Below are positions 9,124-38,234 of a stretch of 39,683 nucleotides of DNA, piece by piece. Source of the stretch: a virus (taxonomy: Duplodnaviria; Heunggongvirae; Uroviricota; Caudoviricetes). Numbering within the stretch: position 1 is the first letter of the stretch; the number at the start of each line of letters is the position of its first letter. The position numbers were made by a program, and so were the translations under genes. The stretch lies in the IMG/VR virus record IMGVR_UViG_2886169441_000004. One strand, written 5' to 3'. Below the pieces are notes generated by a model, which did no database searches, was not told where the DNA came from, and saw nothing but the letters and a program-made list of their open reading frames with translations.

Positions 9124-9712
9124 CATTTTCCTGAGTCTGCCCGGTTGTTTCTTCAGTCTGTATATCGCCTACAGGGTGATAACGATAAATCGTCGATGTG
9201 CCAATGCCGTAAATTATTGCCAGTTGTTTTCTGTCGTGCCCGTTTTTGATTAGCCTTGCTATTTGCTCATGCTGTTCTTTTGTCAGCTTCGGTCGACGTC
9301 CGCCTGTGCGCCCCCTTGCGCGCGCTGCCGCCAGCCCGGCCAGTGTACGTTCAACAATTAATTCACGTTCCATTTCAGCCAGGGCACCCATCACGTGGAA
9401 GAAAAAACGCCCCATTGGAGAAGATGTGTCTATGCTGTCGGTCAGACTGCGAAAATTAATCCCTCGCTCCCGTAGTTCCCCGACGAGAGAAATCAGATGT
9501 TTCATGCTTCGCCCGAGGCGATCCAGTTTCCAGACAACCAGCGTGTCACCTTTTTGAAGGCGCTTTAAAGCGCGTTTTAATCCCGGTCGGTCTGTCTTTG
9601 TCCCGCTTAATTTATCTTCAAATATTTGTTCACATCCTGCACAAACAAGAGCGTTTCGTTGCAGGTCTGTATTCTGGTCATTTGTTGATACCCTTACATA
9701 GCCAATCAGCAC
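9113..9712 (-). CDS. pin: serine recombinase, DNA invertase of the Pin/Hin/Gin/Cin family
   Basis: Near-identical over most of its length to e14 Pin as I recall it (LIGYVRVSTNDQNTDLQRNAL..., catalytic Ser in the RVST motif); start placed at GTG 9712 with GGGAGA upstream, while the track's extended ORF begins at a TTG. Confidence 0.92.
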   Translation of the reverse strand: MLIGYVRVSTNDQNTDLQRNALVCAGCEQIFEDKLSGTKTDRPGLKRALKRLQKGDTLVVWKLDRLGRSMKHLISLVGELRERGINFRSLTDSIDTSSPMGRFFFHVMGALAEMERELIVERTLAGLAAARARGRTGGRRPKLTKEQHEQIARLIKNGHDRKQLAIIYGIGTSTIYRYHPVGDIQTEETTGQTQENENR

Positions 9713-9766
9713 ACTGAATCTCCCGTCCAAAAGCGCAAATCATGCCATGCAGGCCAGAAACGGCCA

Positions 9767-9792
9767 TTATTTAAAACCTCGGTTTACGAGAA
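9767..9792. other. gix/hix-like 26-bp crossover site (TTATTTAAAACCTCGGTTTACGAGAA), invertase-proximal
   Basis: About 21 of 26 positions match the Mu gix site as I recall it; present in inverted orientation relative to the site at 12309..12334. Confidence 0.6.
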
Positions 9793-10284
9793 CTCGGCAC
9801 AAGCGGGGAGAAAATACCGTTACTCAGTACAGCGAATACCTGGACCAATCGACAAACATTCAGCGGTGGCCTTTCTGGGGAACTGTCCGGCAATGCCGCT
9901 ACTGCAACAAAACTGAAAACAGCACGAAAAATTGCTGGAGTTGGTTTTGATGGTTCTAGCGATATTTCAATTAGTGCCAAAAATGTCATGCTTTGCCTCC
10001 GAAAACAGGAATACGTTGCGTGATAACAGTTGGATGGAATGGATAGGGAGCTATAACGCATATTGGTGGTGCATCACGTTAATTTTCATTTATATAAGCG
10101 GAAGTTGTCCTGCGTCAGTTCGGTTAATTATAAAAATGGGGTATTTTTACGTCGCCGTGATGGTTATGGTTTGAAGGTGGTCGATTTTACACCACCACGA
10201 AAACCTTCAGCGGAGATGTTGGTGCATTTATCGGGTCATGAATGTACTGGTATCACATCAGTGCTTGCGTATTCATTGTTGTGA
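9793..10284 (+). pseudogene. alternative tail-fibre C-terminal segment, interrupted by stop and frameshift
   Basis: Manual translation gives a tail-fibre-like stretch (GELSGNAATATKLKTARKIAGVGFDGSSDISISAKNV), then a stop; a downstream frame encodes [18 protein letters not shown], which resembles the minus-strand tip. Confidence 0.5.
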
Positions 10285-10607
10285 TATGACCGGCTTTACA
10301 TGGCGATGGTATCTGTTATGCTATTACGTCCATGTATGCGCTTGTCCCGGAAGCATTCAGTATAGACATAATATACGGGCGTGTTAATCCTCGATTACGG
10401 TACTTGATTCCGTTATGTGAAAGATGTTCGACTGGTTCACAGCAATATATGGATGAACAACTGCGAACATGGAATTTCCAGGCCTCAGGTCATGTATTGT
10501 CGTATTAATGTCAGGATACAGGGTCTAACTCGCGATAATATAGCGGTGTTATTACAGACCGTTCAAAAGTATATAATGGCACTGGTATAATGTAGCGAGC
10601 GTTTAAT

Positions 10608-11114
10608 ATGATGCACTTAAAGAACATAAAGCGGTAAGCTAAAACATGAACAGTATGAGTTAACAAAGAAACACAGTATGGCTTTACTCAGGACGGAAAA
10701 AACTGGTATGAGGAAGAAAAATTTCAGCCAGACACATAAAATGTTACGATGAATAATATTATTGTCGCCATCACCAGAGATGCCTTCACGCTTAATCCCG
10801 AAGGTTTTAGCGTCGTCGAGGTTTCCGATATAACGGCCAATCGTCGGACCGATGATTCCGGTAAGTGGATGTTTAAGGACGGAGCTGTGGTTAAACGGAT
10901 TTATACGGCTGACGAACAGCAACAACAGGCCGAATCACAAAAGGCCGCATTGCTTTCCGAAGCTGAATCAGTCATCCAGCCGCTGGAACGCGCTGTCAGG
11001 CTGAATATGGCAACAGACGAGGAACGCACACGACCGGAAGCATGGGAACGCTACAGTGTTCTGGTCAACCGTGTGGATACGGCAAATCCTGAATGGCCAC
11101 AAAAGCCTGAATAA
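10608..11114 (+). pseudogene. tail fibre assembly protein (Tfa) copy with degenerate 5' end
   Basis: ORF 10749..11114 carries the Tfa core ([43 protein letters not shown]); the expected N-terminus at 10608 reads MMHLKNIKR then stops. Confidence 0.6.
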
Positions 11115-11142
11115 AAATTAAGGCCCGTTATCGGGCCTTGTC

Positions 11143-11674
11143 TCATTCAGGTTGTTCGGGAAATGTTACTGGCAGGCTGGAGGTGTCTGTGGATTCGACT
11201 TTCTGCGCATAGAGCATCCACTCGGTTAATTTTTGTTTATTCTCGTCGGAAATGATGCCCAGCCGTAGCTGTGAGTCCCATAGCTGAGTTTTATCCCTGA
11301 CAAGTTGCAACAGGCTCTGCTTTTCATTTTCCGCTTGTTGCCTCTGCTCTTCCTCGGTATAAGTTCGCTTTACCACTACGCCATCTTTGAACATCCATTT
11401 CCCCGAAATATCAGCCCGGCGATTTGCTGTAATATCAGGTAATTCAACGACGCTTGCGCCTTCCGGATTAATGCTGAAACATCCTTTTCCATACAAATAA
11501 TAACGCCGTTATGTCATAGACCATTTTCAAAGTGTCTGGCTGGAAATTCTTTTTTTCCTCATACCAGTTTTTTCCATCAGCTGAATAAAGCCATTTGATG
11601 TTAAATTGCTTTGTTAGCTGGTATTGCTCTTTTGTTTTAGGGTTGCCAGCAGTAATGTTTTTTAAGTGCATCAT
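11143..11674 (-). pseudogene. tail fibre assembly protein (Tfa) split by a frameshift
   Basis: N-terminal part ([40 protein letters not shown]) at 11468..11674 and the remainder ([31 protein letters not shown]) at 11143..11496 lie in different frames and overlap by 29 nt. Confidence 0.6.
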
Positions 11675-11676
11675 CG

Positions 11677-11952
11677 TTAAATACTCCCCGCGTTATACCA
11701 CGTCCCATTAATGCAATACTGAATTGGCCTTGCCTGTGTTGTATCAATTAATTCATCACGGTTTCCGTTAACTGAACCCGTAACGACATAACCTGACCTG
11801 TCAGACCAGCCGGGACCATTCCATGTCTGAACAGATGACAGACCGCCAAGGCGAATACCTGTAATAAACCTTGAGTTACATTCTGTCCGCGTATATGCAC
11901 CAACATCTCCCGCTGAAGGTTTTCTGTGTGGTGTAAAATCGACCACCTTCAA
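11677..11952 (-). CDS. tail-fibre distal (receptor-binding) C-terminal fragment, not in frame with H
   Basis: 91-aa ORF ([18 protein letters not shown]...[13 protein letters not shown]) resembles e14/lambdoid side-tail-fibre tips as I recall them; separated from H by a stop and about 170 bp of decayed sequence. Confidence 0.55.
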
Positions 11953-12119
11953 ACCATAACCATCACGGCGACGTAAAAATACCCCATTTTTATAATTAAC
12001 CGAATGACGCAGGACACTCCGTCTATATAAAATGAATAATTAACGGATGCACCACCAATATGCGTTATAGCTCCGCTATCCATTCCATCCAACTGTATCA
12101 CCAACGTCTTCCTGTTTTC

Positions 12120-13598
12120 CTAGGCAAAGCACAACATATTGCTTAATTGATATCGGAGAACCATCAAAACCACATGCATTTTCTGCGTTTTAATTTTGCA
12201 GTAGAGCATTGCCGGATAGTTCCCAGAAAGGCCACCGCTGAATGTTTGTCGATTAGTCCAGGTATTCGCTGTACTGAGTAACGGTATTTTCTCCCCGCTT
12301 GTGCCGAGTTCTCGTAAACCGAGGTATTCGATAACGGCAGCAACGGTCGATTTCGCAAGAATATCCCGCCCGACTTTTGTCAGGGTTGCCAGGCTGGCGA
12401 CATCATTCCCCGTAAAATACGGAAACTTGCCTGCCGCAGTAGTAAGTCCGGCCAGCGCCGTCAGGGTGGCATCTTTCGGTTGCTTACCCGCAAGCGCGTT
12501 AGTCATGGTGGTCGCAAAATTCGGGTCGTTGCCCAGCGCCGCAGCCAGCTCGTTCAGCGTGTTCAGTGCATCAGGTGACGAATCTACAAGGGCGGCAATC
12601 GCAGCCATAACGAAAGCCGTGCTTGCGATTTGGGTATTATTCGTTCCCTGTCGCGCAGTTGGTGTTGTTGGCGTTCCGGTCAGTGCAGGACTATTTAAGG
12701 GCGCTTTCTTGTTCGTTTCATCCATTACCGCCTTAACAGCTTTCGATGTCGCGGCCAGTGTTTCAGACGTGCTGTTGGTGGCACTACTGAGCTGGACTAT
12801 CCCTTTTTGTGCCGTCGTGGCGTCCTGAGCGGTATATTTTGCGTTAGCAAGGTCATACGCGGCCTTTACTGCTTTCGGCGTTGCAGCCTGCGTTTCAGAC
12901 GTGCTGTTGGTGGCGCTACTGAGCTGGACAAGGCCTTTTCGCGTCGTGCTGGCATCCTGCGCAGTATATTTACCGTTAGCAAGGTCATACGCGGCCTTTA
13001 CTGCTTTCGGCGTTGCAGCCTGCGTTTCAGACACGCTGTTAGTGGCGCTACTGAGTTGAACAAAGCCTTTTGCGGTCAGCGAGGCGTCCGGGTGACGTCG
13101 TGACTGTTCATGCTCTTTCAGTTTGTCATCCACGTAATCCACTGTGGCCATCACCATGGTGTTATCCACGGTAAGCACCACGGTGGCAGTGCTGGATACG
13201 GTCAGAATGGTGCGAAATGTTTGTGCACGACCGGACCCTTCGGCAACGGCTGGCTTGTAACTTTCGGCAGTATTGCCCACCGCGATTAAATCGCCGTGCT
13301 CATCAAATACACCAATTTCCCGGATCCAGAATCCGCCCGTTTCAGGAGGAATAACCAGCTCCGCAATAATGCGGTTCTGATGTGTTGCGTCCAGGATGAC
13401 GCGATTAACAGTATGTCGCCACACCTCATGCACCAGACGGGTCTGCTTACTGTCTGGTGTGGGCAACGTGCCGCCACCGTCGCCCACGGCCATATGAGTC
13501 AGGCGGACAGGCTTACCATCTGGCGCGGCTGCCTGAGCTAATTTTTTGGCACCCGTATCGGTGATAACGGTTTTAAATTTACGTGTTGTGGTACTCAT
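12120..13598 (-). CDS. H: tail fibre protein H (constant part intact, distal end decayed)
   Basis: N-terminal 300 aa resemble P2 gpH (MAVGDGGG, IIAELVIPPE, HEQSRRHPDASLTAKGF); contains about 2.5 tandem 44-aa repeats; the ORF ends in non-fibre sequence after the crossover site. Confidence 0.85.
   Translation of the reverse strand: MSTTTRKFKTVITDTGAKKLAQAAAPDGKPVRLTHMAVGDGGGTLPTPDSKQTRLVHEVWRHTVNRVILDATHQNRIIAELVIPPETGGFWIREIGVFDEHGDLIAVGNTAESYKPAVAEGSGRAQTFRTILTVSSTATVVLTVDNTMVMATVDYVDDKLKEHEQSRRHPDASLTAKGFVQLSSATNSVSETQAATPKAVKAAYDLANGKYTAQDASTTRKGLVQLSSATNSTSETQAATPKAVKAAYDLANAKYTAQDATTAQKGIVQLSSATNSTSETLAATSKAVKAVMDETNKKAPLNSPALTGTPTTPTARQGTNNTQIASTAFVMAAIAALVDSSPDALNTLNELAAALGNDPNFATTMTNALAGKQPKDATLTALAGLTTAAGKFPYFTGNDVASLATLTKVGRDILAKSTVAAVIEYLGLRELGTSGEKIPLLSTANTWTNRQTFSGGLSGNYPAMLYCKIKTQKMHVVLMVLRYQLSNMLCFA
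12309..12334. other. gix/hix-like 26-bp crossover site (TTCTCGTAAACCGAGGTATTCGATAA) inside the 3' part of H
   Basis: About 22 of 26 positions match gix; its reverse complement is near-identical to the site at 9767..9792. Confidence 0.6.
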
Positions 13599-15023: not shown

Positions 15024-15374
15024 TTACTCTCTCAGCGTGATGGTTAATTCAACATTCTGCATGGTCTGCATGACAGTGCCCGACAGCGTCACCCCGGCGC
15101 GGCCTCCTGCCTTCCAGACAACGTCGATGGCGTCCAGGGCAATGCGGGGTTCCCATCGTGTCAGCGCAATCACGGCAGCACTCATGCATTGCAGACGCGT
15201 GGTGTTATTCATGGGTTCGTCAATCAAATCAGGCACAAGGCTGCCATATTCCCGTCGCATAACCCGGCTTGCCAGCGGGGTGATCAGGATGTCCCTGACT
15301 GACTGTTTCAGGTGCTCCATATCGTTCAGGTTTCCCGTCCCGTCCGGGTTCATTCCTGTGTAGCGGGTTGTCAC
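15024..15374 (-). CDS. W: baseplate protein W (gp25-like)
   Basis: 116 aa; conserved ILITPLASRVMRREYGS and AAVIALTRWEPR blocks; start overlaps the V stop. Confidence 0.87.
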   Translation of the reverse strand: MTTRYTGMNPDGTGNLNDMEHLKQSVRDILITPLASRVMRREYGSLVPDLIDEPMNNTTRLQCMSAAVIALTRWEPRIALDAIDVVWKAGGRAGVTLSGTVMQTMQNVELTITLRE

Positions 15375-15952
15375 TGCGGGCCTCCTGTCGAATCGCTGCC
15401 ACCTTTAACGCCACCGTGCTTATGCGTATGCACGGTAATGCCGTTTGAGGTGAAATTGCCGCCGCTGTGCGTGATATTGCCGCTCATCTTTCCCTCTTTT
15501 GTGACGTCAAGCGTCGCCGTTCTCAGAAGGTTTGTGCATTCCACGACGGGCGTATCCAGTGTCACGCTGACGGATGCCTGCAGGGTGGCTGTTTTCATGC
15601 CGCTGGCGCTCAGTGCGCCAGCGTCTGCGTCGTAGCGGAACACCGCGCCATCCGGCGCGCTGACCACGATTTCTTTCAGGCTTTTGCCGGGGGCCGGACT
15701 GGCATCACTCCACAGGCTGCCAATTATCATGGCGGTTTCCGGGTTGCCGCCAATGCAGGCAATTACCACCTGTTCGCCTGGTGATGGCGGCAGCCACACA
15801 TTGAAGGCTCCCGCGCGCGTGGTGTTCCAGCGCAACCAGCCTGTTTCCAGTTCGCCGCTGCGAACGCGCACGCGCCAGGACTTCTCATCAACTTCAGAGA
15901 TGATCCCGGTGCGGATGATGTTGCTCAGCAGTCGCATGAGTTCTGCGCTCAC
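15371..15952 (-). CDS. V: baseplate spike protein V
   Basis: 193 aa; position and sequence fit P2 gpV; start overlaps the S stop. Confidence 0.87.
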   Translation of the reverse strand: MSAELMRLLSNIIRTGIISEVDEKSWRVRVRSGELETGWLRWNTTRAGAFNVWLPPSPGEQVVIACIGGNPETAMIIGSLWSDASPAPGKSLKEIVVSAPDGAVFRYDADAGALSASGMKTATLQASVSVTLDTPVVECTNLLRTATLDVTKEGKMSGNITHSGGNFTSNGITVHTHKHGGVKGGSDSTGGPQ

Positions 15953-16593
15953 CGTACAGCCTCCGCAATCCGGCCCAGCACCGTGTTATAAATCAGGCGC
16001 TCATCTGCCTGGCTGATACCCAACAGCTCACGTACCGGGTAATCGGTGAAAATGCCCGGCGCAACCTGATCGCGCTCACCGAACTGATGAACGCGTGCAA
16101 TACGTGCGGCCACGCCGCTGTAACCCACCGTCACACCGGAGGCATCTGCACGGGCTTTCAGGTAGCGGGCGGTGCGCAGTTTTACGAACATGGGGACGCG
16201 CTTTGTGCTGTCCTGGTTGATGCGCCGGGTGCGTATTTCCAGAAAACGGTCGATGTCATCCCGGTAAAACGTGCGGATATTGTTTTTATCCTCATCCCAC
16301 CCGGTAATGGTTCGCCCGTATTTCCCTGTGTCGTGATGCCAGTTTTTCAGCGTGCGTGCTTCGTTATTCCAGATAAAGCGAATGCGCTCCTGTATCCGGG
16401 TTACGCGGCGTCTGCGTGGTGTCCATTCGGTCCCGTCCGGCGCTTTTTGTGACCGGATACGTGCCTGCTGGGCGCGACGTAAATCCTGTGCCAGCTTTCT
16501 GGCGATGTTATTGATGGCCTGCTGATTCAGGCTGTCGCGGATAGCCTCAAAGGTTTCATCCACGCGGGTGAATGCCTTATCCATCGCTTTCAC
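15949..16593 (-). CDS. S: tail completion / virion morphogenesis protein S
   Basis: 214 aa between R and V; assigned by position and recalled similarity to P2 gpS. Confidence 0.82.
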   Translation of the reverse strand: MKAMDKAFTRVDETFEAIRDSLNQQAINNIARKLAQDLRRAQQARIRSQKAPDGTEWTPRRRRVTRIQERIRFIWNNEARTLKNWHHDTGKYGRTITGWDEDKNNIRTFYRDDIDRFLEIRTRRINQDSTKRVPMFVKLRTARYLKARADASGVTVGYSGVAARIARVHQFGERDQVAPGIFTDYPVRELLGISQADERLIYNTVLGRIAEAVR

Positions 16594-17044
16594 CCCACGT
16601 CACATCCTGGAATACATGCGACCAGTCGCCTTCGGAAGAAGGCAGACGGGGTTTTGGCTCCGGCAGGTGTTCTGCCTGCGGTGTGCCCTGACTGTTGCGC
16701 GTGATGCGAACGCGTTCCCGCAGGGGGAGCGTAAACAGGAGATCGGCGCTGTCATCGTCATTGATAACGGCAGAAAATTTGATGTCCTGATTACGCTCCG
16801 GATTGAGCAACAACTGTGGCTGATTTTCGGATAACCACGCCAGCAGCGGCAGCGTGAGGTCGTCCAGCTCTCCGGCGTAATCCATGACAAACATCACCAT
16901 CTGATAGCGGTAAACAAACGAGGGCGCTTCTCCGGTCGTTTCAATGTTGCCGCTCTCCACGAAAATGGTGAATTTCTCGGGATTAGCCTGGCACCACCGA
17001 CACCCATGAAGCATGGACTCTCGCAGACTGTTTGTCTTAAGCAT
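16577..17044 (-). CDS. R: tail completion protein R
   Basis: 155 aa upstream of S; assigned by position and recalled similarity to P2 gpR. Confidence 0.8.
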   Translation of the reverse strand: MLKTNSLRESMLHGCRWCQANPEKFTIFVESGNIETTGEAPSFVYRYQMVMFVMDYAGELDDLTLPLLAWLSENQPQLLLNPERNQDIKFSAVINDDDSADLLFTLPLRERVRITRNSQGTPQAEHLPEPKPRLPSSEGDWSHVFQDVTWGESDG

Positions 17045-17067
17045 CTGTTTTGCTCTCCTGCTCTTCC

Positions 17068-18945
17068 TTATGCTGCGGGATTATTGATTTCCAGCACCAG
17101 GCTGCCGATATCGACGCCGTACGCGGCATTTTTAGTGATATCAGTTAACGTCAGCGCATTCAGCCCCAGTGTCAGACTGTCTTTTATGACCTGGAATGCC
17201 GGGCCAGCCACTCCATTCAGTTTCGGAGTAACCGTGGCACTGCCGGCGGTGAACACCAGCTCCAGCGTCTGCCAGTCGTTACTGTAATTCCCGAACTCGC
17301 CCAACTTTGTGTTTCCTGCTTTCTTGTGATGCATCAGATTCAGTTTGCCGTCTGTGGTCTGGGTGAAGAACGACATCAGGAACGGGTTACCAGTCCCGGT
17401 CATCGCCACGACGTCAGGTAACGCTACATCGGTATACAGATAAATTCCCAGACCGAACTGATTGTTGGTCAGTGCGCCTGACAGTCGAAACTTACAGCTC
17501 AGTCTGCCACCCCGTGTCAGCAGGGAGACTGCGTCATCCACCGGGCGCGTCAGGGACCAGGCTTTATTGCTCTGCTTGGTGATCTTAAATACACCCTCTG
17601 ACAACTGAATTCCGCCATTCTTAATGCTCCAGCCCTGCGCAGCAGCATCTCCGGCTGTCGGCAACAGGGAGATTGTGCGTACGGATGCATCTTCAGACGG
17701 CCCCGATGGCGTGTCGCCGCCGGGCGAGGGTTTGATTTCCGGTGCCTTACCACTGATGAAGGCTAAGGTGCGACCGGCTACGTTCAGAATAGCGGTTGCC
17801 ATACGATCGGGAATAATGCCACGACGCGCCCATGAGCTGAAATGCGTCTGGCGATTTGATGATACCCAGTTTTTGTTCGTTCGGGATGCCGAACCGTAAT
17901 ATCCCTCACTTGCAGCATCCGGATCTTCCGTTGGTGCGTTGGTGGAGGTATTGTTGCCACTACCATCGGTCAGGAACGGCACAAAGAAAACGTTGTCGCT
18001 CTCCCTGTTTTTGTACGCCCCGTAAATGGTGTCGTACTGCGTGCCGTAGGTGTTTTTCCAGTAATACGTCGTGTCACCACAAATCCATGGCACACTTGCC
18101 GCTCTGCCTCCATGACACTGCGTGTTAAACTCGGTAATGTCCGCACGAAACTGTTTCAGCATGGCCGTAAACAGCGGAGGTTGCTGTGAGTACGTAGCGG
18201 CGCTCATGTCAAATTCGCCCTGCATCCAGCATACGGCCAGCAGCATGTTTTTTGGGTTTTTCTGCAATGCGGCCTTCGTGCGCAAAATCAGGTCCTGATA
18301 TAAAGGTTTACCCACACCCCAGCGAGCCGAATCCTGACTGGCTCCTGTGGACTCGCTGAATGTCCCCTCCGCGCCCTGGGTGAATGCCGAACCACCACGA
18401 CAGCATGGAACCAGTAAAATCCCGGCATTCTGTGGAATGTAAGGCAACAGGCGTTTGGCAATATGCAAGCCCTGTCCGACACAGCCATACTGCCCTTTGC
18501 TCAGGTCTGCATTCGGGTGATTCAGTGCGCTCATATCCTGAACATCATGCAGGCAGTGGTCTGCCGGAATGATGTCGTTAAATGCGCATGCTTTACCACC
18601 GGGAGTCACTGTGTTGCGACGGGCCAGTTGCTTAATGCGTGGGTGGGGCGCATCGTAAGAATCCGGCAGCGGCATTCCCTCACCATATGACATGGCATTG
18701 GATTGACCAGCAAGTACCACCACGTAATACCACTCCGGCACGCTGCCGTGCTGGGGGGAATCAGGTGAGATGTCTGTAGTGCCATCGGCCACCATTGCCT
18801 GCATTAGATACCACGGGGTGCCGGGTTCGTAGGCAACCCGCGTCTCCCCCTGAAGATGCCACCCTTTCGCAAGATGTTCATTCACCTTTTGAGTCAGTTC
18901 AGCCTGTGTCATGGCTGTAATCAGTGCAAAGTTCTTACTGGTCAT
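17068..18945 (-). CDS. nanS: NanS-p-like sialate O-acetylesterase moron (N-terminal DUF1737-like region, SGNH/SASA esterase core, C-terminal lectin-like region)
   Basis: 625 aa; SGNH block I motif GQSNAMSYGEG; size and architecture fit prophage NanS-p esterases of E. coli; not part of the canonical P2 gene set. Confidence 0.78.
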   Translation of the reverse strand: MTSKNFALITAMTQAELTQKVNEHLAKGWHLQGETRVAYEPGTPWYLMQAMVADGTTDISPDSPQHGSVPEWYYVVVLAGQSNAMSYGEGMPLPDSYDAPHPRIKQLARRNTVTPGGKACAFNDIIPADHCLHDVQDMSALNHPNADLSKGQYGCVGQGLHIAKRLLPYIPQNAGILLVPCCRGGSAFTQGAEGTFSESTGASQDSARWGVGKPLYQDLILRTKAALQKNPKNMLLAVCWMQGEFDMSAATYSQQPPLFTAMLKQFRADITEFNTQCHGGRAASVPWICGDTTYYWKNTYGTQYDTIYGAYKNRESDNVFFVPFLTDGSGNNTSTNAPTEDPDAASEGYYGSASRTNKNWVSSNRQTHFSSWARRGIIPDRMATAILNVAGRTLAFISGKAPEIKPSPGGDTPSGPSEDASVRTISLLPTAGDAAAQGWSIKNGGIQLSEGVFKITKQSNKAWSLTRPVDDAVSLLTRGGRLSCKFRLSGALTNNQFGLGIYLYTDVALPDVVAMTGTGNPFLMSFFTQTTDGKLNLMHHKKAGNTKLGEFGNYSNDWQTLELVFTAGSATVTPKLNGVAGPAFQVIKDSLTLGLNALTLTDITKNAAYGVDIGSLVLEINNPAA

Positions 18946-19223
18946 TGTGTTACTCCCGTCTGGTGTGTCAGTTCGGCTATTCTCTTATCCAGTTCAGCAA
19001 TGGCCCGTTTATCCGCGTTACAGGTTTCCAGTGCATCCAGAAGGCGGTCGCCCCATATTCCGAGGTTTCCCCATGTGGGTGGGTCAGGGAAGGGGGGAGG
19101 CGTTACCGGCATGGTCAGCGTCTGCGGTATAAGCCGGACTGACGGCGCTGGCCCTGGCGCGTTCTGCGTGCCTGCGCAACCTGTCAGTAAAACGAGCGTC
19201 AGGCAAAGCGTGGGCGCATTCAT
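18942..19223 (-). CDS. lysC: outer-membrane spanin lipoprotein (LysC/Rz1-like)
   Basis: Starts MNAPTLCLTLVLLTGCAG with a lipobox; Pro-rich; overlaps the 3' end of the LysB-like gene in another frame. Confidence 0.6.
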   Translation of the reverse strand: MNAPTLCLTLVLLTGCAGTQNAPGPAPSVRLIPQTLTMPVTPPPFPDPPTWGNLGIWGDRLLDALETCNADKRAIAELDKRIAELTHQTGVTQ

Positions 19224-19479
19224 CTTTTGCAATATCGTTGCGTAGCTGTTCACGTCTTACCTCTCCGTCCTGATTGCGTTGCTGATTTTCCGCGCGGAGC
19301 TGAGCCAGCACCTGCTGCATATCCTGTACCCCGGCGCTGATGATATTCAGTGTGTCGACGGTACTTTTCAGGGTGCTGGCCTGCGCTTCGTTTCTGGCGT
19401 TCTCCCGGCCCAGCGACCACGACAGACGCATGGATGTAATCAGAAGGAAAGCGACGCCAAGCGTGGGCCAGAGCTTCAT
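19084..19479 (-). CDS. lysB: inner-membrane spanin (LysB/Rz-like)
   Basis: Start placed at the internal ATG (MKLWPTLGVAFLLITS), giving an N-terminal TM helix followed by a coiled-coil-like region; sits right after the endolysin. Confidence 0.6.
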   Translation of the reverse strand: MKLWPTLGVAFLLITSMRLSWSLGRENARNEAQASTLKSTVDTLNIISAGVQDMQQVLAQLRAENQQRNQDGEVRREQLRNDIAKDECAHALPDARFTDRLRRHAERARASAVSPAYTADADHAGNASPLP

Positions 19480-19868
19480 GCCGGATAGGCTCCGTGTGGT
19501 AACTGAAAATGCGGTCCGTCTTTCAGGGTCTTCCAGTCGCCGCCCCATTCCACCGGAATATTCAGTTCCTGGCTGGCCTGTCTGAATGCTGCTGCGATTT
19601 TTTCGTACAGCGGCCATTCCCATGACACCTGGTTGCCGACATAAGCCACAACATCCACGGCATGCCCTGTGAGATGGCGACTGTTCATGGTCTGGCTCTT
19701 GCCTGTGGTCACGAGCTGCTTCTGACGATAACGACTGCGCAATCCTTCGGTGATACCAAAATCCACTTCCGAGATTTCCAGCGCCCGTCGGGTCACTTTC
19801 ACCAGATCAGGATTTACACCCTGCAAATTCTTTTCGCTCCGGCTGCTGAATTTAAATGTGTTGCTCAT
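19476..19868 (-). CDS. endolysin, peptidase M15-type (zinc L-Ala-D-Glu peptidase-like)
   Basis: 130 aa with an HLTGHAVDV zinc-binding pattern; lies between holin and spanins; differs from the P2 K lysozyme type. Confidence 0.78.
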   Translation of the reverse strand: MSNTFKFSSRSEKNLQGVNPDLVKVTRRALEISEVDFGITEGLRSRYRQKQLVTTGKSQTMNSRHLTGHAVDVVAYVGNQVSWEWPLYEKIAAAFRQASQELNIPVEWGGDWKTLKDGPHFQLPHGAYPA

Positions 19869-20188
19869 TCGTTCCTCTCCTTCACCCTGCGATCAAATAT
19901 TGCAATAACCTTGTCGCGTGCTTTCTCTGCGCCCATAAAACCGATTGAGGCACCAAAAAACGTCACTGCATCCTCAGGGATCCCGAAGAAGCGCAGCGAC
20001 CCGGCCACGGCCATGGCAAGAACGCCGCACGCCAGCGATCCCGTTACGGTCTGAACCAGTGTTCGTCCGTCATAAAGACTCATCAGCGCGGAAATGCTGA
20101 CCGCCGCGCCTACTGCATACACCGTTGGCAGGTGGTCAAAGAGCCACGCAATAACCTGCTCTGTGATCCCTGTTTGAATGGTGCTCAC
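19865..20188 (-). CDS. holin, lambda S-like
   Basis: Start placed at GTG 20188 with GGGGGAG upstream (MSTIQTG...); about 108 aa with several hydrophobic helices and a charged C-terminus. Confidence 0.7.
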   Translation of the reverse strand: MSTIQTGITEQVIAWLFDHLPTVYAVGAAVSISALMSLYDGRTLVQTVTGSLACGVLAMAVAGSLRFFGIPEDAVTFFGASIGFMGAEKARDKVIAIFDRRVKERNE

Positions 20189-20190
20189 TG

Positions 20191-20391
20191 CTACTCCCCC
20201 CACAACTGAATCATTTCTCGTTTCTTCTTCTCCGGCTCCGGCATCTCCACTTCCTGCCCGGCGTCCAGAAATACCTGCTGACAGAGTCCGGGGTTGGCAT
20301 CCAGCACCTTTTCGGTGACGCCCTGTGTCGTGCCGTAGTACCGGAAACAGAGCGAATCCACGGTGTCGCCTTCCAGTGCCTTCACTTTCAT
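20191..20391 (-). CDS. X: tail protein X
   Basis: About 66 aa (MKVKALEGDTVDSLCFRYYG...) resembling P2 gpX; ATG overlaps the L stop. Confidence 0.8.
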   Translation of the reverse strand: MKVKALEGDTVDSLCFRYYGTTQGVTEKVLDANPGLCQQVFLDAGQEVEMPEPEKKKREMIQLWGE

Positions 20392-20885
20392 CAGCACAGC
20401 TCCGCAAACATTCGCGGTCGTCCCAGAATGTCAGAGATGGCCCAGCTCACATCGCGCCACAAATCCGATGTCTGTATATCCAGTGCGTCCGCCCGGCGGT
20501 CGCCCTTGTCCGTTGTGTCCGCATCGCGGTAACGCTCCAGAATCAGGGCGCGTGTGGCGGTATAAACAGCATTGCGCCAGTGCCAGAGATTGACGCTTTC
20601 TCCGTTAATTACAGGGGCCGGAACATCGGCCAGCGTCTGATAGCCAGCCGCCTGTTGTTCCTGCTGCCATGCTTCCAGCTCGCGGGTAACGTGTGCTATG
20701 GCCCCGGTGGCGGTATGCAGCAGGCGGGAGGTGGTCACGCGGCCCGGCAGTCGTACCGCCAGACGCAGCTCGCGCAGCACAATATCCGGCCAGAATGCAC
20801 CCGCTGAAATACGGGTATCGCCATCATCGGTGTCGGTGATGTCGTCCTCTGCGGGGCCGGGGTTAGTTCTGGCAACCATACTCAT
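20391..20885 (-). CDS. L: head completion/stabilisation protein L
   Basis: Assigned by position after M and recalled similarity to P2 gpL; start placed at ATG 20885 with AGGAG upstream. Confidence 0.83.
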   Translation of the reverse strand: MSMVARTNPGPAEDDITDTDDGDTRISAGAFWPDIVLRELRLAVRLPGRVTTSRLLHTATGAIAHVTRELEAWQQEQQAAGYQTLADVPAPVINGESVNLWHWRNAVYTATRALILERYRDADTTDKGDRRADALDIQTSDLWRDVSWAISDILGRPRMFAELC

Positions 20886-20986
20886 GGGGTTCACTCCTGA
20901 AAAAATCGGGCGGTGGGTGCGCGGTGTAAACGGTCACGGAGTCAAACCGGAACACCGCGCACGCCGCCCGCTGACGGGGTCAGTCG

Positions 20987-21787
20987 TTAACCGCGCTTTG
21001 CCTTCTGCGTCGCGGTGGTTTTTCGTGTTGCAGGCTTCCGCGTTGTCTTTTTACTTTTGCTGCTTTCGTCCTGCGCCTGCTGTGCGCTGGCGTCTTCTGG
21101 TTCGGCTGCGGAATCGGCTTTTTTCAGGGCGCGGGAAAGGGTTGCAATCTCGCGTTTCACACCTGCGTTCGGGTTCAGGTGCATCGCTTCGCGCAGCAGC
21201 TTCAGTGATGAGGCCATGTTGTCTGCATCGGTCAGGCCACGACGGGCAAAGGCACACGCCTTGCATAATTTGGCGCGCACTTCGTCCGGCATGTCCTGGT
21301 TGGCGATAATTTCCCAAAGTGTGTCCAGTGGTTCGATAAAGGCGGATAAATCCGCGTCGGCATCCGTCCCAGCCTGCGTCAGTACCGGGTTGCAGATTTC
21401 TTCGGTCAGTACCGTGGCAGCAGTACGGCCAAAGTTATCCGGCATGATGAGGTTGTGACGGACCACATATGCACCAATACGCAGCGCCAGCGGAAGATCG
21501 CCGCAGTCAATCGCCCACACCATCAGCGTGGCAATTACTTCGTCCTGTTGCCCGCCGTCAGCCTCCAGCGTTCCCTCAATCCAGCCGGAAAAGTCCGGCA
21601 ACAACTCTTTTTTGATGGCGGCTTTCGCGCTTCTGGCCTGTATGGCCTTTAGCCTGGCCTGTGCCAGACGCAGACGATACAGCACCTCTTCATGCGCGGT
21701 ACACGCGGCGTGGTCCACACCTTCATTCGCCCGGCCTGCGCGCTGTGCCATCACGTTCTGCCAGTGTTGTTGTGCAGGAGTAATCAT
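20987..21787 (-). CDS. M: terminase endonuclease (small) subunit M
   Basis: 266 aa with a basic Lys/Thr/Arg-rich C-terminus; assigned by position and recalled similarity to P2 gpM. Confidence 0.87.
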   Translation of the reverse strand: MITPAQQHWQNVMAQRAGRANEGVDHAACTAHEEVLYRLRLAQARLKAIQARSAKAAIKKELLPDFSGWIEGTLEADGGQQDEVIATLMVWAIDCGDLPLALRIGAYVVRHNLIMPDNFGRTAATVLTEEICNPVLTQAGTDADADLSAFIEPLDTLWEIIANQDMPDEVRAKLCKACAFARRGLTDADNMASSLKLLREAMHLNPNAGVKREIATLSRALKKADSAAEPEDASAQQAQDESSKSKKTTRKPATRKTTATQKAKRG

Positions 21788-21806
21788 TTTTTCTCTCCGT
21801 TACAGG

Positions 21807-21825
21807 CGGGCATGATGCCCGCCGT
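21807..21825 (-). terminator. hairpin GGCGGGCAT-ATGCCCGCC between N and M (partial terminator or attenuator)
   Basis: Perfect 9-bp-arm palindrome directly after the major capsid gene stop. Confidence 0.45.
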
Positions 21826-21832
21826 GAGTTGA

Positions 21833-22885
21833 TTAGCTGTCGGCGAACTTCAGGCCAGTGACCATCGCGCACTTGCCATAGTCTTCAACGACATAAGCGT
21901 CATTGATGGACTGGTAGGTGGCGATGCGGTTGTATTCCGGCTCGTCTTTCATCAGGCGACGCATTGAACCTTTCTGCCAGTAAATCGACAGGTTGTTGAA
22001 CGAGGTGATAAGCATCGTTGCATCCGGGAAGAACGGCGCAAGGAACACGCCCAGCCCGCCAATGGTGCGCGATGACAGGATGAGCTGCCCGGCAAGTAAT
22101 TCCGCATTGGGATTCTGGCCGCTGATGCTGTTCAGCACGGGCAGACGCAGCGAGTTAAACAGGTTGCGCCCCATAATCACCGCGAGGTCGTCAGCTTCCT
22201 TGTGCCATTCATCCAGCAGGGATGAGCGCGCATCCTGTACCAGAGCATCGGCATTCGCATACTTACCCGCGTGCGCCACAGTGTTGTCCATGTTGCGGGA
22301 GGTCAGCGTCACGTCATTCATTACGCGCTCGCTGGCATCGGTTCTGATGTGCTCCAGCCAGCCCACGTTAACGTCCTGAAGCAGCTTGTTGGTGTGAAAA
22401 TCAGACTCGTAGGCGTGGGATGTGCCGTTAAAGCCAATCATGATGCGATCAAGCGCTACCTGCCGGGCGATCTGTGTACTGATACGGGACTGAAAATCGC
22501 TGTGGGCCGCCCAGGTATCAAGCTGTGGGTACGAAATAAAGGTATCGTAGTTCACCTGTTCGCACTGGTACTGACGAGACTTCATATCGATCACGTTATT
22601 CGGGTTACGGCGTTTGATGCCGTCATAACTGCTATTCGTGCGCGCAATTGGCCCGGTGGTGTCCAGGAGGATTTTTTCGCCTTTCTGGTCGGTCACGCCG
22701 ATCACGTTAATTCTTTTCGTAAATTCGGTACTTTCCTTTGAGGCGTTTTCAAAACGCTGCTGCACCGCGGGTTCCACGGTAAATCGCGATACCAGTGCAG
22801 ATACCGGGATATTGTTAAGCGACGCCTGCTGCGCCATATAGCAACCCAGCTTGTTGCGGGTAATATCTGACATCACCAGATTCAT
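21833..22885 (-). CDS. N: major capsid protein N
   Basis: 350 aa; conserved blocks shared with P2 gpN (RFTVEP, KGEKI, MIGFNG, YVVEDYG); AAGGAG Shine-Dalgarno. Confidence 0.92.
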   Translation of the reverse strand: MNLVMSDITRNKLGCYMAQQASLNNIPVSALVSRFTVEPAVQQRFENASKESTEFTKRINVIGVTDQKGEKILLDTTGPIARTNSSYDGIKRRNPNNVIDMKSRQYQCEQVNYDTFISYPQLDTWAAHSDFQSRISTQIARQVALDRIMIGFNGTSHAYESDFHTNKLLQDVNVGWLEHIRTDASERVMNDVTLTSRNMDNTVAHAGKYANADALVQDARSSLLDEWHKEADDLAVIMGRNLFNSLRLPVLNSISGQNPNAELLAGQLILSSRTIGGLGVFLAPFFPDATMLITSFNNLSIYWQKGSMRRLMKDEPEYNRIATYQSINDAYVVEDYGKCAMVTGLKFADS

Positions 22886-22908
22886 AAAAAATTTGCTCCT
22901 TTGTCTTA

Positions 22909-23745
22909 TCAGAAGTCAGCCAGCTGGTCGGAGGCTGCGCCCGTTGCGGTGAAGCGGTTCTGCGGATCGCCGTCCTGCGTGCGCAGTTTTTCCTTCAATG
23001 CTGTCAGCTCTGTGGTCAGTGACGTGATTTTCTGGCGGTCCTGCTGATGGCGGGTTTCCAGCACATTAAAACGGTCGATAATGTCGGCCTGTGACGTTGC
23101 AACGCCTTCCACCGCTTCCTGAATTCGGGAGAAACTGGCGTCATCCGCTTTGCGGCCACGACCAATAATCCCCATTACGCGGTTAAACCACTGGGTGCCT
23201 TCTTCCTGGCGTTGTTCTGCCATTTCGATGATTTCAGACTCGATGGCTTCGGAGATAAGCGGTGCTTCACCCTGGATACTGTTGAACGTCATCACCGCCT
23301 GACGTTGCTGTGCCGTGAATTTCAGGCGCTCAGTGCCCAGGCTTGCCGGGGTGTCGGTCATCGCCAGCCCGACCAGATAGGCGCGCCCGTTAACGGAGAA
23401 CTGCGGGTGCAGTTCGATACTGGAATAGATTTTCTTGCCGTCAGCGACAAGCTGCTTCATGCGCTCGGTCGGTTCGATTTCTGCATACAGCGCAGTACGT
23501 CCGGCCAGCGGACCTTCCGTAATGTCTTCCGTACTCAGTGCGGTGACATCGCCCATTGCGGAAAATTCGCTTGACGGACATGGCGAGAGATAGTGCTCAA
23601 CGTTCACGCGGGCAGCGTAAACATCCGGGTTGAAGTTCTCGGCGGCTTCACGCAGATGCACCGGACTGATTTCACGGCCATCAACAGTTGATCCGGAGAC
23701 AGCCACGCGAAACTTTTTGCGGGATGTCTTTTTTTCATTAGCCAT
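22909..23745 (-). CDS. O: capsid scaffolding protein O
   Basis: Similar to P2 gpO; start placed at ATG 23745 (MANEKKTSRKKFRVAV) with GAGGGG upstream; the track ORF extends to 23778. Confidence 0.88.
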   Translation of the reverse strand: MANEKKTSRKKFRVAVSGSTVDGREISPVHLREAAENFNPDVYAARVNVEHYLSPCPSSEFSAMGDVTALSTEDITEGPLAGRTALYAEIEPTERMKQLVADGKKIYSSIELHPQFSVNGRAYLVGLAMTDTPASLGTERLKFTAQQRQAVMTFNSIQGEAPLISEAIESEIIEMAEQRQEEGTQWFNRVMGIIGRGRKADDASFSRIQEAVEGVATSQADIIDRFNVLETRHQQDRQKITSLTTELTALKEKLRTQDGDPQNRFTATGAASDQLADF

Positions 23746-26697: not shown

Positions 26698-26714
26698 TGG
26701 GGCTGTCCTTTTTA
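26681..26714. terminator. bidirectional rho-independent terminator after Q
   Basis: Stem CAGCCCC / GGGGCTG with loop GTGAT, flanked by an A-run upstream and T-run downstream; also lies after the stop of the convergent gene 26712..27236. Confidence 0.65.
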
Positions 26715-27236
26715 CCAGAGTTGAACCATTTTCTGGGTGCCGTCAGGCTTGAGATTATCAATTTCAGAGAGAACGTAATATTGAATGGCTTCACAAACGG
26801 TGGTGTAGGGTGAATTACCTTCTTTAAGTGGCACGATATTATTATTAACGCGAACCTGTATTTCATCGTTATACATTGCGATCGAAACAGGAGTGTGCAC
26901 GAACGCGACTTCGCCAGGTGTGTCGTCAACCACCGTTTCAATACTAAAAGTCAGTTTTCGCTCATCATTGCTGCCCCGTGCTTTGGGGGTAGCGGCAGGG
27001 ATCTGGGATAAAGGCATTCTGCGAAATCCTTCGGCTGCTTCCAGTCCGCATGAAACGTAATGCTGGCGATTACCGTCGCTATCTGTCCAGGTCTGTGATG
27101 GCAGCTCCAGCGAGATTTCATAAGCATCAACAATGCCCTGGGCAAGGCGTACAAGCGGGGTCAGATCTTCATTGCGGCGAAAGCTCTCCTTTACCTGCTC
27201 CCGTTTTTCTCTTAACTGCTTGTAATTAATGACCAT
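26712..27236 (-). CDS. hypothetical cargo protein, about 174 aa, no recognisable domain
   Basis: ORF 26712..27275; start placed at ATG 27236 (MVINYKQLREK...) with GGAGG at 7 nt spacing; convergent with the portal gene. Confidence 0.6.
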   Translation of the reverse strand: MVINYKQLREKREQVKESFRRNEDLTPLVRLAQGIVDAYEISLELPSQTWTDSDGNRQHYVSCGLEAAEGFRRMPLSQIPAATPKARGSNDERKLTFSIETVVDDTPGEVAFVHTPVSIAMYNDEIQVRVNNNIVPLKEGNSPYTTVCEAIQYYVLSEIDNLKPDGTQKMVQLW

Positions 27237-27336
27237 AAGACAGCCTCCATTGATTTCTTTGCTCGTATTTTGCACTTATGAAGTATGGTCGGCAAGGTGC
27301 CGTATCGCTGACGCGCTTCGCTTGTCTGCTGCTTCG

Positions 27337-27363
27337 CCGGGGCATAAAAAATTTATGCCCCGG
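27337..27363. other. perfect 27-bp palindrome CCGGGGCATAAA-AAA-TTTATGCCCCGG
   Basis: 12-bp arms read from sequence; upstream of the 26712..27236 gene in the non-coding region between the head genes and the cargo operon. Confidence 0.5.
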
Positions 27364-27735
27364 CTCTCCAGCTCCTGTATCAATCAGATAATTTCACGAC
27401 GCCTTCCAGTTTATCGCCACCATCGACGGTCAGACTCTTACGCAATTCCACCGCGTTGACTGCATGTTCTCGCTGCCTCAGTGCGATTTTGACGGCCTTA
27501 CCTTTCACCCCATCAAATCAAAAGCCCTCACGCCTTTTTCATGCTCAGCGTGAGAAATATGGCCATTCTGTTGTGTCTCTGCGACATCGTTCAGGGAATG
27601 CTATTTACCCCCTGAAACGCGGGCTGTTCCCCCGTCACCTGCGCGCAGAAAAAGCGCGTTTTTTTGTGCACGCACGGATCCTTGACGGATCCAGCCGCCA
27701 TGCGGGCCGGAAGGGTAAAAAGTCGTTCAAAAAAA

Positions 27736-27762
27736 TTGTGCAAATTTGTGCACTTTTGTGCA
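27736..27762 (+). promoter_or_regulatory. three TTGTGCA direct repeats at exact 10-bp phasing (candidate operator overlapping a promoter)
   Basis: Repeats at 27736, 27746 and 27756, followed by a TATATT -10-like hexamer at 27777..27782; a fourth TTGTGCA copy at 27664. Confidence 0.4.
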
Positions 27763-27862
27763 GGTAAGCATGCCTATATATTTGACCGTGGCTTGCCTTT
27801 GATGTAGTTTATACGTCACAAAAACCACAAAACGTGGTTATGATTTCTATGAGGGGGTTGAT

Positions 27863-27898
27863 ATGAAAAAAATGTATGATGAATTTGATGGTTTCTAA
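27863..27898 (+). CDS. candidate 11-aa leader peptide (MKKMYDEFDGF)
   Basis: Short ORF with GAGGGGG Shine-Dalgarno at about 5 nt spacing, immediately upstream of a terminator hairpin and the cargo operon. Confidence 0.3.
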   Translation: MKKMYDEFDGF

Positions 27899-27918
27899 GC
27901 TACGTTGACCTCTAATGA

Positions 27919-27946
27919 GGCGGGGATTTGCTCCCCGCCTTTTTTA
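27919..27946 (+). terminator. intrinsic terminator/attenuator hairpin 14 nt upstream of the cargo operon start
   Basis: Stem GGCGGGGA / TCCCCGCC with loop TTTGC, followed by seven T residues. Confidence 0.6.
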
Positions 27947-27959
27947 TGGATGAAATAGG

Positions 27960-28457
27960 ATGAACCCAATAACACTACAAATCATCAGCAATGCTATTGT
28001 TCTGCTTGGCGTTTTGGTTGCCATTGGAACCATTATCTACAATGTGCGTACCGCAAAAAAAACTCAAACGGCCAACTTTCTTTTTGAGAGTCGGCAAGAT
28101 ATGCAATATATAGAGTCATTGCATACCCTGAAACAAGTGCATCGTTCAGGCAAATCATTTCGTTCTTATGTTTTTCCTTGTGATGGTTGCATAATAACAG
28201 ATGAAGAAATGGCCGAGCGTCGAAAATTTCAATATATTTTAAATTTTTACGAGCGAGTTGCTGTAAGTATTCGTGAAGGTATTTATGATGAAAAAATGAT
28301 AAAAAGAACATCTTACACAACAGTTGTAGAGACATATGATATTGCCGAGCCATTAATTAAAGCAATCAGAGAAAGCATTAATTCGGATACTACATATCAA
28401 GAATTCGAATGGTTAGTAAGAAGATGGAAAGCTAATCCTTTACGGAAAAACAAATAA
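27960..28457 (+). CDS. cargo protein 1: 165 aa, N-terminal transmembrane helix plus soluble domain, unknown function
   Basis: Markedly AT-rich ORF; N-terminal hydrophobic stretch ITLQIISNAIVLLGVLVAIGTIIY; no similarity to P2 core genes. Confidence 0.7.
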   Translation: MNPITLQIISNAIVLLGVLVAIGTIIYNVRTAKKTQTANFLFESRQDMQYIESLHTLKQVHRSGKSFRSYVFPCDGCIITDEEMAERRKFQYILNFYERVAVSIREGIYDEKMIKRTSYTTVVETYDIAEPLIKAIRESINSDTTYQEFEWLVRRWKANPLRKNK

Positions 28458-28496
28458 TGTTTTACCCTTTAATTTACAAGTAACACAGGGGGAAGT

Positions 28497-29339: not shown

Positions 29340-29350
29340 TTTGAAACATT

Positions 29351-29373
29351 GGCACCCTGTTAGCAAGGGTGCC
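29351..29373. terminator. hairpin GGCACCCT-GTTAGCA-AGGGTGCC between the convergent cargo operon and parR
   Basis: Perfect 8-bp stem read from sequence, placed between the two convergent 3' ends. Confidence 0.5.
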
Positions 29374-29422
29374 AGAATGATGTGTTGGTCTGTATTTTAT
29401 TAGTTCACATACAATTATCAGA

Positions 29423-38175: not shown

Positions 38176-38234
38176 TTGTTATCCTCTTGCGTTGGTGCGC
38201 TTGTCGCGCCTTGTGATGGTTTGTTTTGGCTTGT

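Follow-up and report, generated by a model that had tools for sequence, protein, structure and literature searches.

The window analysed here is a stretch of 39,683 nucleotides (nt) of viral DNA (IMG/VR virus record IMGVR_UViG_2886169441_000004, Caudoviricetes) that carries a nanS-p-like gene within the late operon of a P2-like prophage. The gene occupies 17068..18945 on the minus strand as an uninterrupted open reading frame (ORF) with an ATG start. It encodes a protein of 625 amino acids (aa) that is identical to RefSeq WP_000202148.1 of Escherichia coli JJ1887, where it is labelled 'DUF6645 domain-containing protein'. An initial annotation had described the product as a NanS-p-like esterase with a GQSN motif and a three-part architecture, encoded between lysC and R, and had read its presence as a cross-family moron transfer. 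The description of the protein is borne out by Pfam, PHROG_143, the structures 3PT5 and 6YP6 and the sequence motifs, while the account of its origin is only partly sustained.

Domain Architecture of the Esterase

Three Pfam families match the protein above their gathering thresholds, which served as the domain cutoffs: DUF1737 (PF08410; aa 4-53, 28.8 bits, cutoff 24), SASA (aa 75-271, 44.3 bits, cutoff 24.8) and DUF6645 (PF20350; aa 476-586, 70.2 bits, cutoff 27). PHROG_143 covers the protein end to end (1068 bits), and sequence searches of the PDB aligned aa 69-388 with NanS/YjhS (3PT5, E=1.7e-125; 58% identity to this E. coli NanS across 316 aligned residues) and aa 430-622 with the crystallised NanS-p C-terminal domain (6YP6, E=1.7e-29). 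Given 625 codons and these domain scores, a chance ORF at 17068-18945 is ruled out.

The N-terminal DUF1737 domain (aa 1-56; 18778..18945, minus strand), delimited by Pfam, AlphaFold2 and identity matrices, represents a P2-type subclass. AlphaFold2 predicts the order beta(4-11)-alpha(14-26)-beta(30-38)-beta(46-54) at a predicted local distance difference test (pLDDT) score of 67-84, with a loop that reads Y39-EPGTP-W45 and is followed directly by Y46. Next comes a Pro/Ser-rich linker that includes TTDISPDSPQHGSV (aa 57-69; 18739..18777, minus strand) and is predicted to be disordered, with pLDDT below 50 at aa 56-68. The sequence of this linker is free to vary between alleles; at positions 6001-6255 of loci L036-L038, a variant of the window-type N-domain is 93% identical in its folded part and has a wholly different linker (ATETPSEPLPNNKT vs TTDISPDSPQHGSV).

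The SASA/SGNH catalytic domain (aa 70-390; 17776..18738, minus strand), assigned from the 3PT5 match and its motifs, has block I as GQSN at aa 80-83 (S82), block II as CCRGGS (G184/185), block III as WMQGE at 240-244 (Q242-G243-E244) and a His block RQTH (H368). The last is of the RxxH type without a block V Asp, as in NanS; both the block definitions and the missing block V Asp of NanS follow published accounts (PMC9487903, PMC10462455). These motifs are kept in all 16 of the 16 alleles aligned. An inter-domain linker (aa 391-429; 17659..17775, minus strand) with the motifs KPSPGG and TPSGPS and pLDDT below 50 at aa 392-424 leads to the C-terminal DUF6645 domain (aa 430-625; 17071..17658, minus strand), a lectin-like beta-sandwich according to Pfam and 6YP6. 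AlphaFold2 models this domain as all-beta (pLDDT 66-87), although the model as a whole has a mean pLDDT of 62.7 and the catalytic domain is poorly predicted. Every protein-level feature of NanS-p that can be tested by sequence is present, namely DUF1737, SASA with NanS-type blocks and the lectin-like DUF6645. On these sequence grounds the product is a member of the NanS-p family and a predicted sialate O-acetylesterase of the NanS/NanS-p type. It thus belongs to a known enzyme family in a genomic context not previously described; no description of NanS-p in P2-like prophages was found in the accessible literature, and RefSeq already annotates the gene.

Position in the Late Operon

The upstream neighbour, lysC, encodes an Rz1-like o-spanin (Pfam LysC, PF23793) and spans 18942..19253 on the minus strand as an ORF, with the RefSeq lysC annotation in JJ1887 mapping to about 18942..19202. 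The downstream neighbour, R, encodes the tail completion/terminator protein (Pfam P2_Phage_GpR, PF06891; 16577..17044, minus strand), so the gene order given in the initial annotation holds. Both belong to a co-directional late block, O-N-M-L-X-holin-M15 endolysin-lysB/lysC-[esterase]-R-S-V..., at 15371..23745 on the minus strand, which was assigned from ORFs, protein families and the mapping of phage P88 proteins. Its genes are separated by small gaps or none, and co-directional genes run on downstream to about 12200. The block corresponds to the 'O operon' of P2, whose end in P2 is after S according to the P2 annotation.

The esterase is tightly fitted into this block. Its ATG overlaps the lysC TGA (ATGA), a Shine-Dalgarno sequence (GGGAG) lies within lysC 7 nt upstream of the esterase ATG, and the stop codon is separated from the ATG of R by a 23-nt spacer (GGAAGAGCAGGAGAGCAAAACAG; 17045..17067, minus strand) that bears the Shine-Dalgarno of R. 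Promoters and terminators were sought with simple consensus patterns: no promoter of the esterase's own scored above chance, the sole upstream promoter-like site ending at the start codon, and no minus-strand terminator was detected 3' of the esterase stop. The guanine-cytosine (GC) fraction is 0.535-0.548 across the gene, matching the 0.55-0.56 of its flanks. Searches for direct or inverted repeats bracketing 17003/18997 gave just short imperfect chance matches, and an origin of the insert by transposition or site-specific integration was rejected because bracketing repeats are missing. Scans of the locus and the window detected no Rfam families or tRNAs, and the P2 late-promoter dyad TGT-N12-ACA gave three matches, below chance, none of them relevant. 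With junctions that have no signals of their own, no repeats and no GC shift, the gene is built into the late operon and is not a self-contained cassette.

Comparison with P88 and P2

The nearest sequenced phages are P88-like Peduoviridae (genus Xuanwuvirus). The segment 17003..18997 (minus strand) substitutes for 93 bp of P88, as seen by blastn and global alignment, and the flanks at 15900-17002 and 18998-20500 are 95-97% identical to P88. The esterase is missing from P88 and from at least six other P88-like phages, whose flanks are about 96% identical. In P2, lysC overlaps R with no gene between them, and the same is true of P88; the earlier statement that P2 has no such gene is therefore correct. 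The substitution extends slightly into both neighbours, since in the junction alignment the last ~18 lysC codons diverge from P88 lysC and the first ~14 R codons (MLKTNSLRESMLHGC) diverge from those of P88 (MLKTDSLREAMTRSC). Every esterase-bearing P88-like prophage examined has the 23-nt spacer, which P88 lacks, and the altered R N-terminus; at least two variants of these sequences occur.

The 4.5 kb at 16000-20500 recur with 100% identity in many complete E. coli chromosomes, among them those of JJ1887, an O25b:H4 strain and MNCRE44, which are strains of the sequence type 131 (ST131) type. The prophage site in those chromosomes lies between serS and dmsA. Full-length matches to every P88 virion protein are present in the window, and the prophage thus appears complete. 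The JJ1887 copy also holds an IS1.

Mosaic Structure and Distribution

The esterase gene has a mosaic structure. By blastn, its similarity to the alleles of phages 434 and JLK-2012 is confined to nucleotides 17068-18739 (about 85%), and within this core the identity to them is patchy and ranges from 75 to 100%. The comparison with other NanS-p alleles agrees at the protein level: from aa 75 on, the product is 86-87% identical to those of 434, JLK-2012 and phage 86 and about 54% identical to that of phi24B. The DUF1737 part is unlike every lambdoid allele examined in protein alignments, and in the phage collection it had no significant match except three records of the same prophage. No lambdoid counterpart was found for the lysC tail, the DUF1737 domain, the last ~50 nt of the gene, the spacer or the R head. 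Mosaicism is also seen among Shiga toxin (Stx) phages, in that the phage 86 esterase (L051, 1727-3622) is a hybrid relative to that of phi24B (L006, 23314-25251), with 98% identity in the N-domain and linker and 57% in the remainder, the latter being 86-87% identical to 434, JLK-2012 and the window allele.

The chromosome of O104:H4 strain C227-11 has the same arrangement within a P2-like prophage. Its allele (WP_000202135.1) is 100% identical to the window allele over 19240-18540 and 17525-16900 and 68-95% identical in the middle part, where the window allele in turn has patches up to 100% identical to JLK-2012 and 434. The 5' and 3' ends are thus invariant between the ST131-type and O104:H4 prophages, while the core differs by 5-32% and has patches 85-100% identical to lambdoid alleles. 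This pattern indicates that the ends are stable P2-lineage sequence and that the core is exchanged with other alleles, lambdoid ones included.

The window-type arrangement is present in 376 of 5,426 complete E. coli genomes (about 7%), including ST131-type strains and O104:H4; 367 complete genomes have a junction at least 99% identical, and 373 contain the 4.5-kb locus in full. Of the five esterase-like loci in O104:H4 genomes, one is the P2-prophage allele. Among species-representative genomes the P2-type N-domain was not found outside E. coli. E. albertii and an Escherichia sp. gave matches to lambdoid alleles, and Proteus faecis and a Bacillota metagenome-assembled genome gave matches to the catalytic part only. 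A word-indexed search for stand-alone relatives of the N-domain gave just fragments of the same gene. An exhaustive phmmer search with the N-domain against 1.84 billion representatives gave 10 matches, among which P0131 and P0133 are truncated and derive from the second P2-like lineage described below and P0135-P0138 are genuine small DUF1737 proteins. P0135, P0136 and P0138 were not located in IMG/VR, and P0132 was rejected as a spurious repeat protein.

Two kinds of deviating loci were also encountered. In three IMG/VR contigs (L013 and L025, both 6001-8247; L029, 4806-7049), 100% identical P2-type lysis genes are followed by the esterase and then directly by a lambdoid holin/endolysin. These were rejected as real P2-lambdoid hybrids because the junction occurs in none of the 5,426 complete genomes; they are probably assembly chimeras formed through the shared esterase repeat and call for caution in prophage calling from short-read assemblies. 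In two P88-like prophages (L026, 5019-5876; L031, 6001-6858), the esterase has a large internal deletion that leaves pieces of ~197 and ~101 aa, which indicates that the gene can decay in some lineages.

A Second P2-Like Lineage

A scan of IMG/VR with the N-domain recovered, besides many P88-like loci, seven loci (L039-L045) of a far more distant P2-like group. Its proteins are 62% (gpN), 69% (gpL), 66% (gpX), 56-58% (gpR), 45-48% (gpS), 57-59% (gpV), 64% (gpJ) and 27-32% (LysB) identical to those of the window. The same lysC-R slot is filled there by a homologous 640-656-aa protein with the DUF1737-SASA-DUF6645 architecture, represented by P0011 (656 aa; 277 cluster members; E. coli; labelled 'sialate O-acetylesterase [Escherichia coli]'). 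This type is rarer than that of the window, occurring in 14-16 of the 5,426 complete genomes. The two lineages differ in that the second has a lysozyme-type endolysin where the window has an M15 endolysin, and about 400 bp between the esterase and R where the window has 23 nt. In L042 this gap (7972-8372) holds a 90-aa antisense ORF (8050-8322, minus strand) with no Pfam match.

The domains of the two esterases have different histories. Over aa 1-56, identity between the N-domains of the window type and the second lineage is 54-64% (57-65% by tblastn), as opposed to 22-38% between P2-type and lambdoid N-domains, and the two share the signature F.LITA...E..KVN..L..GW.L.G.....EPG.PWYLMQAM. The catalytic domain of the window protein, in contrast, is 85-86% identical to 434/JLK-2012 and 66-70% to the second P2 lineage. 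For its C-terminal domain the figures are 87-91% against 434, JLK-2012 and an E. albertii allele and 32-37% against the second P2 lineage, whose C-terminal cassette is nearer to phi24B (up to 55%). Judging from these per-domain identities, the slot and the N-domain seem to be vertically inherited in P2-like phages, with the enzyme/lectin part shuffled across families. Because a second, deeply diverged P2-like lineage fills the same slot, the gene appears to be an older, patchy resident of some Peduoviridae and not a recent moron.

Origin and Function of the Esterase

Taken together, these observations are probably best explained by a functional NanS-p esterase whose gene is an integral part of the P88-like late operon, mosaic in structure and an old resident of P2-like phages. 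The esterase would be transcribed and translated with the lysis and tail genes, solely upon lytic growth of the prophage. It has no signal peptide, the N-terminus being a folded domain, and is therefore expected to be released by phage lysis. Once outside, it would strip O-acetyl groups (9-O in characterised relatives) from free or mucin-bound sialic acids, which could then be used by sialidases and E. coli, as reported for lambdoid NanS-p. As for the sequence itself, the P2 lineage is the source of the lysC tail, DUF1737 and the first ~65 codons of the catalytic domain at the 5' end, and of the last ~50 nt, the spacer and the R head at the 3' end; the core is swapped with lambdoid prophages resident in the same cell, through homologous recombination. 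A review (PMC8065619) reports esterase activity for every NanS-p enzyme of EDL933 and for the five of O104:H4 C227-11phicu. NanS-p enzymes permit growth on 5-N-acetyl-9-O-acetylneuraminic acid (Neu5,9Ac2) and de-O-acetylate mucin glycans (PMC8065619 and other reviews), and lambdoid nanS-p expression is late and induction-dependent, rising by 1-2.4 logs with mitomycin C (PMC10462455). Since the P2-prophage allele is one of the five esterase-like loci of O104:H4, the P2-type subclass was probably among the five enzymes tested.

Several points weigh against this explanation. Membership of the P2-borne allele among those five O104:H4 enzymes is only probable, substrate specificity is extrapolated from 58-86% identity, and the activity and expression of the window allele are predicted from homology and operon position. 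Consensus scans might also overlook a promoter that is internal or not of the sigma-70 type. P2-type prophages are classically hard to induce, and the LexA box gave a single match, at chance level and inside gene A, with none close to the derepression gene; lytic expression may then be rare and the benefit to the lysogen population weaker.

The proposal of a cross-family moron transfer was divided by these results. What stands is that sequence has clearly passed from one phage family to another, the core being shared with 434 and JLK-2012 in 75-100% patches; what is not supported is a moron in the strict sense or a one-off lambdoid import. It is unlikely that the gene is a lysogenic-conversion moron that was recently acquired from a lambdoid prophage of the Stx type and whose expression serves the lysogen, despite its absence from P2 and its closest relative P88, a core about 85% identical in nucleotides to lambdoid alleles and the published role of NanS-p in growth on Neu5,9Ac2. 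Morons in the sense of Hendrix and Juhala are absent at the same place in relatives, equipped with their own promoter and terminator, through which they can be expressed from the repressed prophage, and atypical in composition; only the first holds here. Neither a promoter nor a terminator belonging to the gene scored above chance; the gene is translationally coupled to lysC through the ATGA overlap, precedes R by only the 23-nt spacer and shares the GC content of its flanks (0.54), with no flanking repeats or other insertion scars. A single lambdoid transfer is likewise too simple, as both ends are P2-specific, the N-domain is unlike all lambdoid N-domains examined, and the same slot is filled in a P2 lineage whose virion proteins are just 45-70% identical.

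Two other readings are less likely still. A review has raised the idea that such enzymes modify receptors (PMC8065619), acting on O-acetylated bacterial surface polysaccharides (for example O-antigens or capsules with O-acetylated sialic acid) to aid adsorption or release in the manner of a receptor-destroying enzyme. The gene adjoins lysis and tail genes and would be made late, and an allele is present in O104:H4. The O104:H4 O-antigen contains O-acetylated sialic acid. Yet most carriers, such as ST131-type strains and bovine Shiga toxin-producing E. coli, have no known sialylated surface antigen, the protein has no tail-fibre or baseplate attachment domain, and the sole reported virion location of the family is the capsid, so a receptor-modifying role seems improbable. 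Least plausible of all is a decaying passenger with no current function. Internal deletions do occur in some IMG/VR copies (L026, L031), and the gene is dispensable, with P88 living without it, but the ORF is intact with all catalytic motifs kept, the junction and full locus are conserved in hundreds of complete genomes as given above, and two diverged P2 lineages retain full-length three-domain genes.

A Possible Capsid Adaptor

A further possibility is compatible with the old-resident explanation and adds a step to it. In the NanS-p family member gp84 of phi24B, DUF1737 is reported to form a hexamer in the capsid hexon pores and so to decorate the capsid hexons, the enzyme domains later being cleaved off (preprint 10.64898/2026.04.10.717836). 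By extension, the P2-type DUF1737 might bind gpN hexamers, so that virions would carry the esterase/lectin at least transiently and interact with sialylated mucus; the N-domain would then be a virion-specific adaptor and the enzyme/lectin an exchangeable cargo. This extended scenario is conceivable but doubtful. The modelled fold of the window N-domain is of the phi24B type, a helix with a three-stranded sheet followed by a disordered Pro/Ser linker. An aromatic-rich loop lies at the position of the phi24B Tyr42 anchor (the beta2-beta3 loop), although none of the aromatics of Y39-EPGTP-W45-Y46 aligns exactly with Tyr42. N-domains group by virion family and the cargo does not; between the two P2 lineages, the N-domains (54-64% identity) have diverged to the same extent as the virion proteins (gpN 62%, gpL 69%, gpR 57%). 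Stx2 phage 86 and phi24B likewise have major capsid proteins (MCPs) 100% identical and N-domains 98% identical, with the phage 86 cargo 86-87% identical to that of 434 and the window. The gpN site can accept a ligand, as Psu of P4 decorates gpN hexamer centres.

On the other side, the N-domains of 434 and JLK-2012 are 90% identical, yet their capsid proteins are unrelated (BLASTP E=14), the MCP of 434 being lambda-type (Pfam Phage_cap_E) and that of JLK-2012 a Peptidase_S78-Phage_capsid fusion (protease-HK97-type). A neutral linkage model explains all of the patterns, as PE[WY]YYV..GQSN marks the onset of homology and conversion tracts can start only there. The gene is dispensable for virion assembly, being absent from P88. 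The phi24B binding comes from a single preprint and was seen only on flat face-centre hexons of a capsid with triangulation number T=9, and P2 capsids are T=7. Psu of P4, which acts on gpN capsids, and Hoc of T4, which confers mucus adherence, serve here as analogies only; the likeness is that of a dispensable external decoration if DUF1737 binds gpN, which is hypothetical here, and neither has any sequence relationship to the window protein. The claim that DUF1737 is a virion-family-specific adaptor whose P2-type version docks esterase/lectin cargo on P2-like gpN hexamers is, on balance, unlikely.

If it were true, this would be the first enzyme-bearing capsid decoration of the Peduoviridae and part of a modular system of adaptor and exchangeable mucus-active cargo across myo-, sipho- and podoviral temperate E. 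coli phages, those of ST131 and O104:H4 included. The role of the gene would move from the lysogen feeding on mucus to the interaction of the virion with mucus, and the swapping of domains would provide natural adaptors with which cargo could be displayed on various capsids.

Other Features of the Prophage

The remainder of the window departs from P88 in several places. In the immunity/integration module (37700-39660), the C repressor, Cox and integrase are 38%, 29% and 50% identical to those of P88, and the immunity and attachment type thus differs from P88 on a backbone otherwise 93-97% identical. Between the portal gene Q and parM-like genes, 26700-29600 is occupied by low-GC cargo (0.32-0.40) with no equivalent in P88. 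It comprises a 187-aa ORF (26712-27275, minus strand), a DUF4760 protein (27960-28457, plus strand) and a 280-aa multi-pass membrane protein (28497-29339, plus strand) with a weak PADLOC match to Csx27 (E=1e-5). Located at a P2-type hot spot, this cargo is a candidate for a defence or exclusion function.

The region 9160-12200 (GC 0.43-0.45) is an invertible tail-fibre region in which the fibre C-terminus is unlike that of P88. It includes a DNA invertase gene (9164-9712, minus strand), with alternative fibre tips and tail-fibre-assembly genes alongside in both orientations. Near the serS-proximal end of the prophage lie a hok/gef-type toxin gene (1602-1739, minus strand), 98% identical to the P88 copy, and a gene for an ogr/Delta-like zinc-finger late activator (about 1931-2191, minus strand).

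Relation to Known Systems and Significance

As the initial annotation stated, and as is supported here, NanS-p esterases are known chiefly from lambdoid and Stx prophages. The lambdoid NanS-p proteins (933W p42/z1466; phi24B vb_24B_21, which is gp84; 434, JLK-2012 and phage 86) have the same DUF1737-SASA-DUF6645 architecture and the same SGNH/SASA motif variants as the window protein. They too are prophage-encoded, made with late genes beside the lysis cassette and devoid of a signal peptide. The differences lie in the host element, a P2-like myovirus (Peduoviridae) here and a lambdoid phage there; in the position, after lysC and before R here and between Q/stx and holin S in lambdoid phages; in translational coupling, where the 434 copy is flanked by annotated terminators; and in DUF1737, which forms a separate subclass. 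Chromosomal NanS (YjhS, 3PT5) shares the catalytic domain, with GQSN, GG, QGE and RxxH without the block V Asp, and Neu5,9Ac2 de-O-acetylation is accordingly the activity predicted by homology. NanS is a single-domain protein of the nanCMS operon, whereas the window protein adds DUF1737 and the lectin-like domain and would be under phage late control.

P2-like phages also carry other cargo, such as orf30/old/tin/Z-fun of P2 and the cdt-V operon found in P2-like prophages (PMC8065619), which is likewise accessory, not needed for the virion and present in some members only. The window gene stands apart from the former, as it lies inside the late operon, without signals of its own and with typical composition. 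Classical P2 cargo is found at hot spots between operons, is atypical in base composition and brings its own signals.

NanS-p esterases have been discussed almost only as accessories of Shiga-toxin phages. Here they are found within P2-like prophages of about 7% of complete E. coli genomes, and the carriers include pandemic ST131-type strains and the O104:H4 outbreak clone. Because the P2-borne gene recombines with lambdoid alleles, unrelated prophage families share one pool of enzyme/lectin cassettes, and the shared esterase homology is also a route for recombination between prophages.

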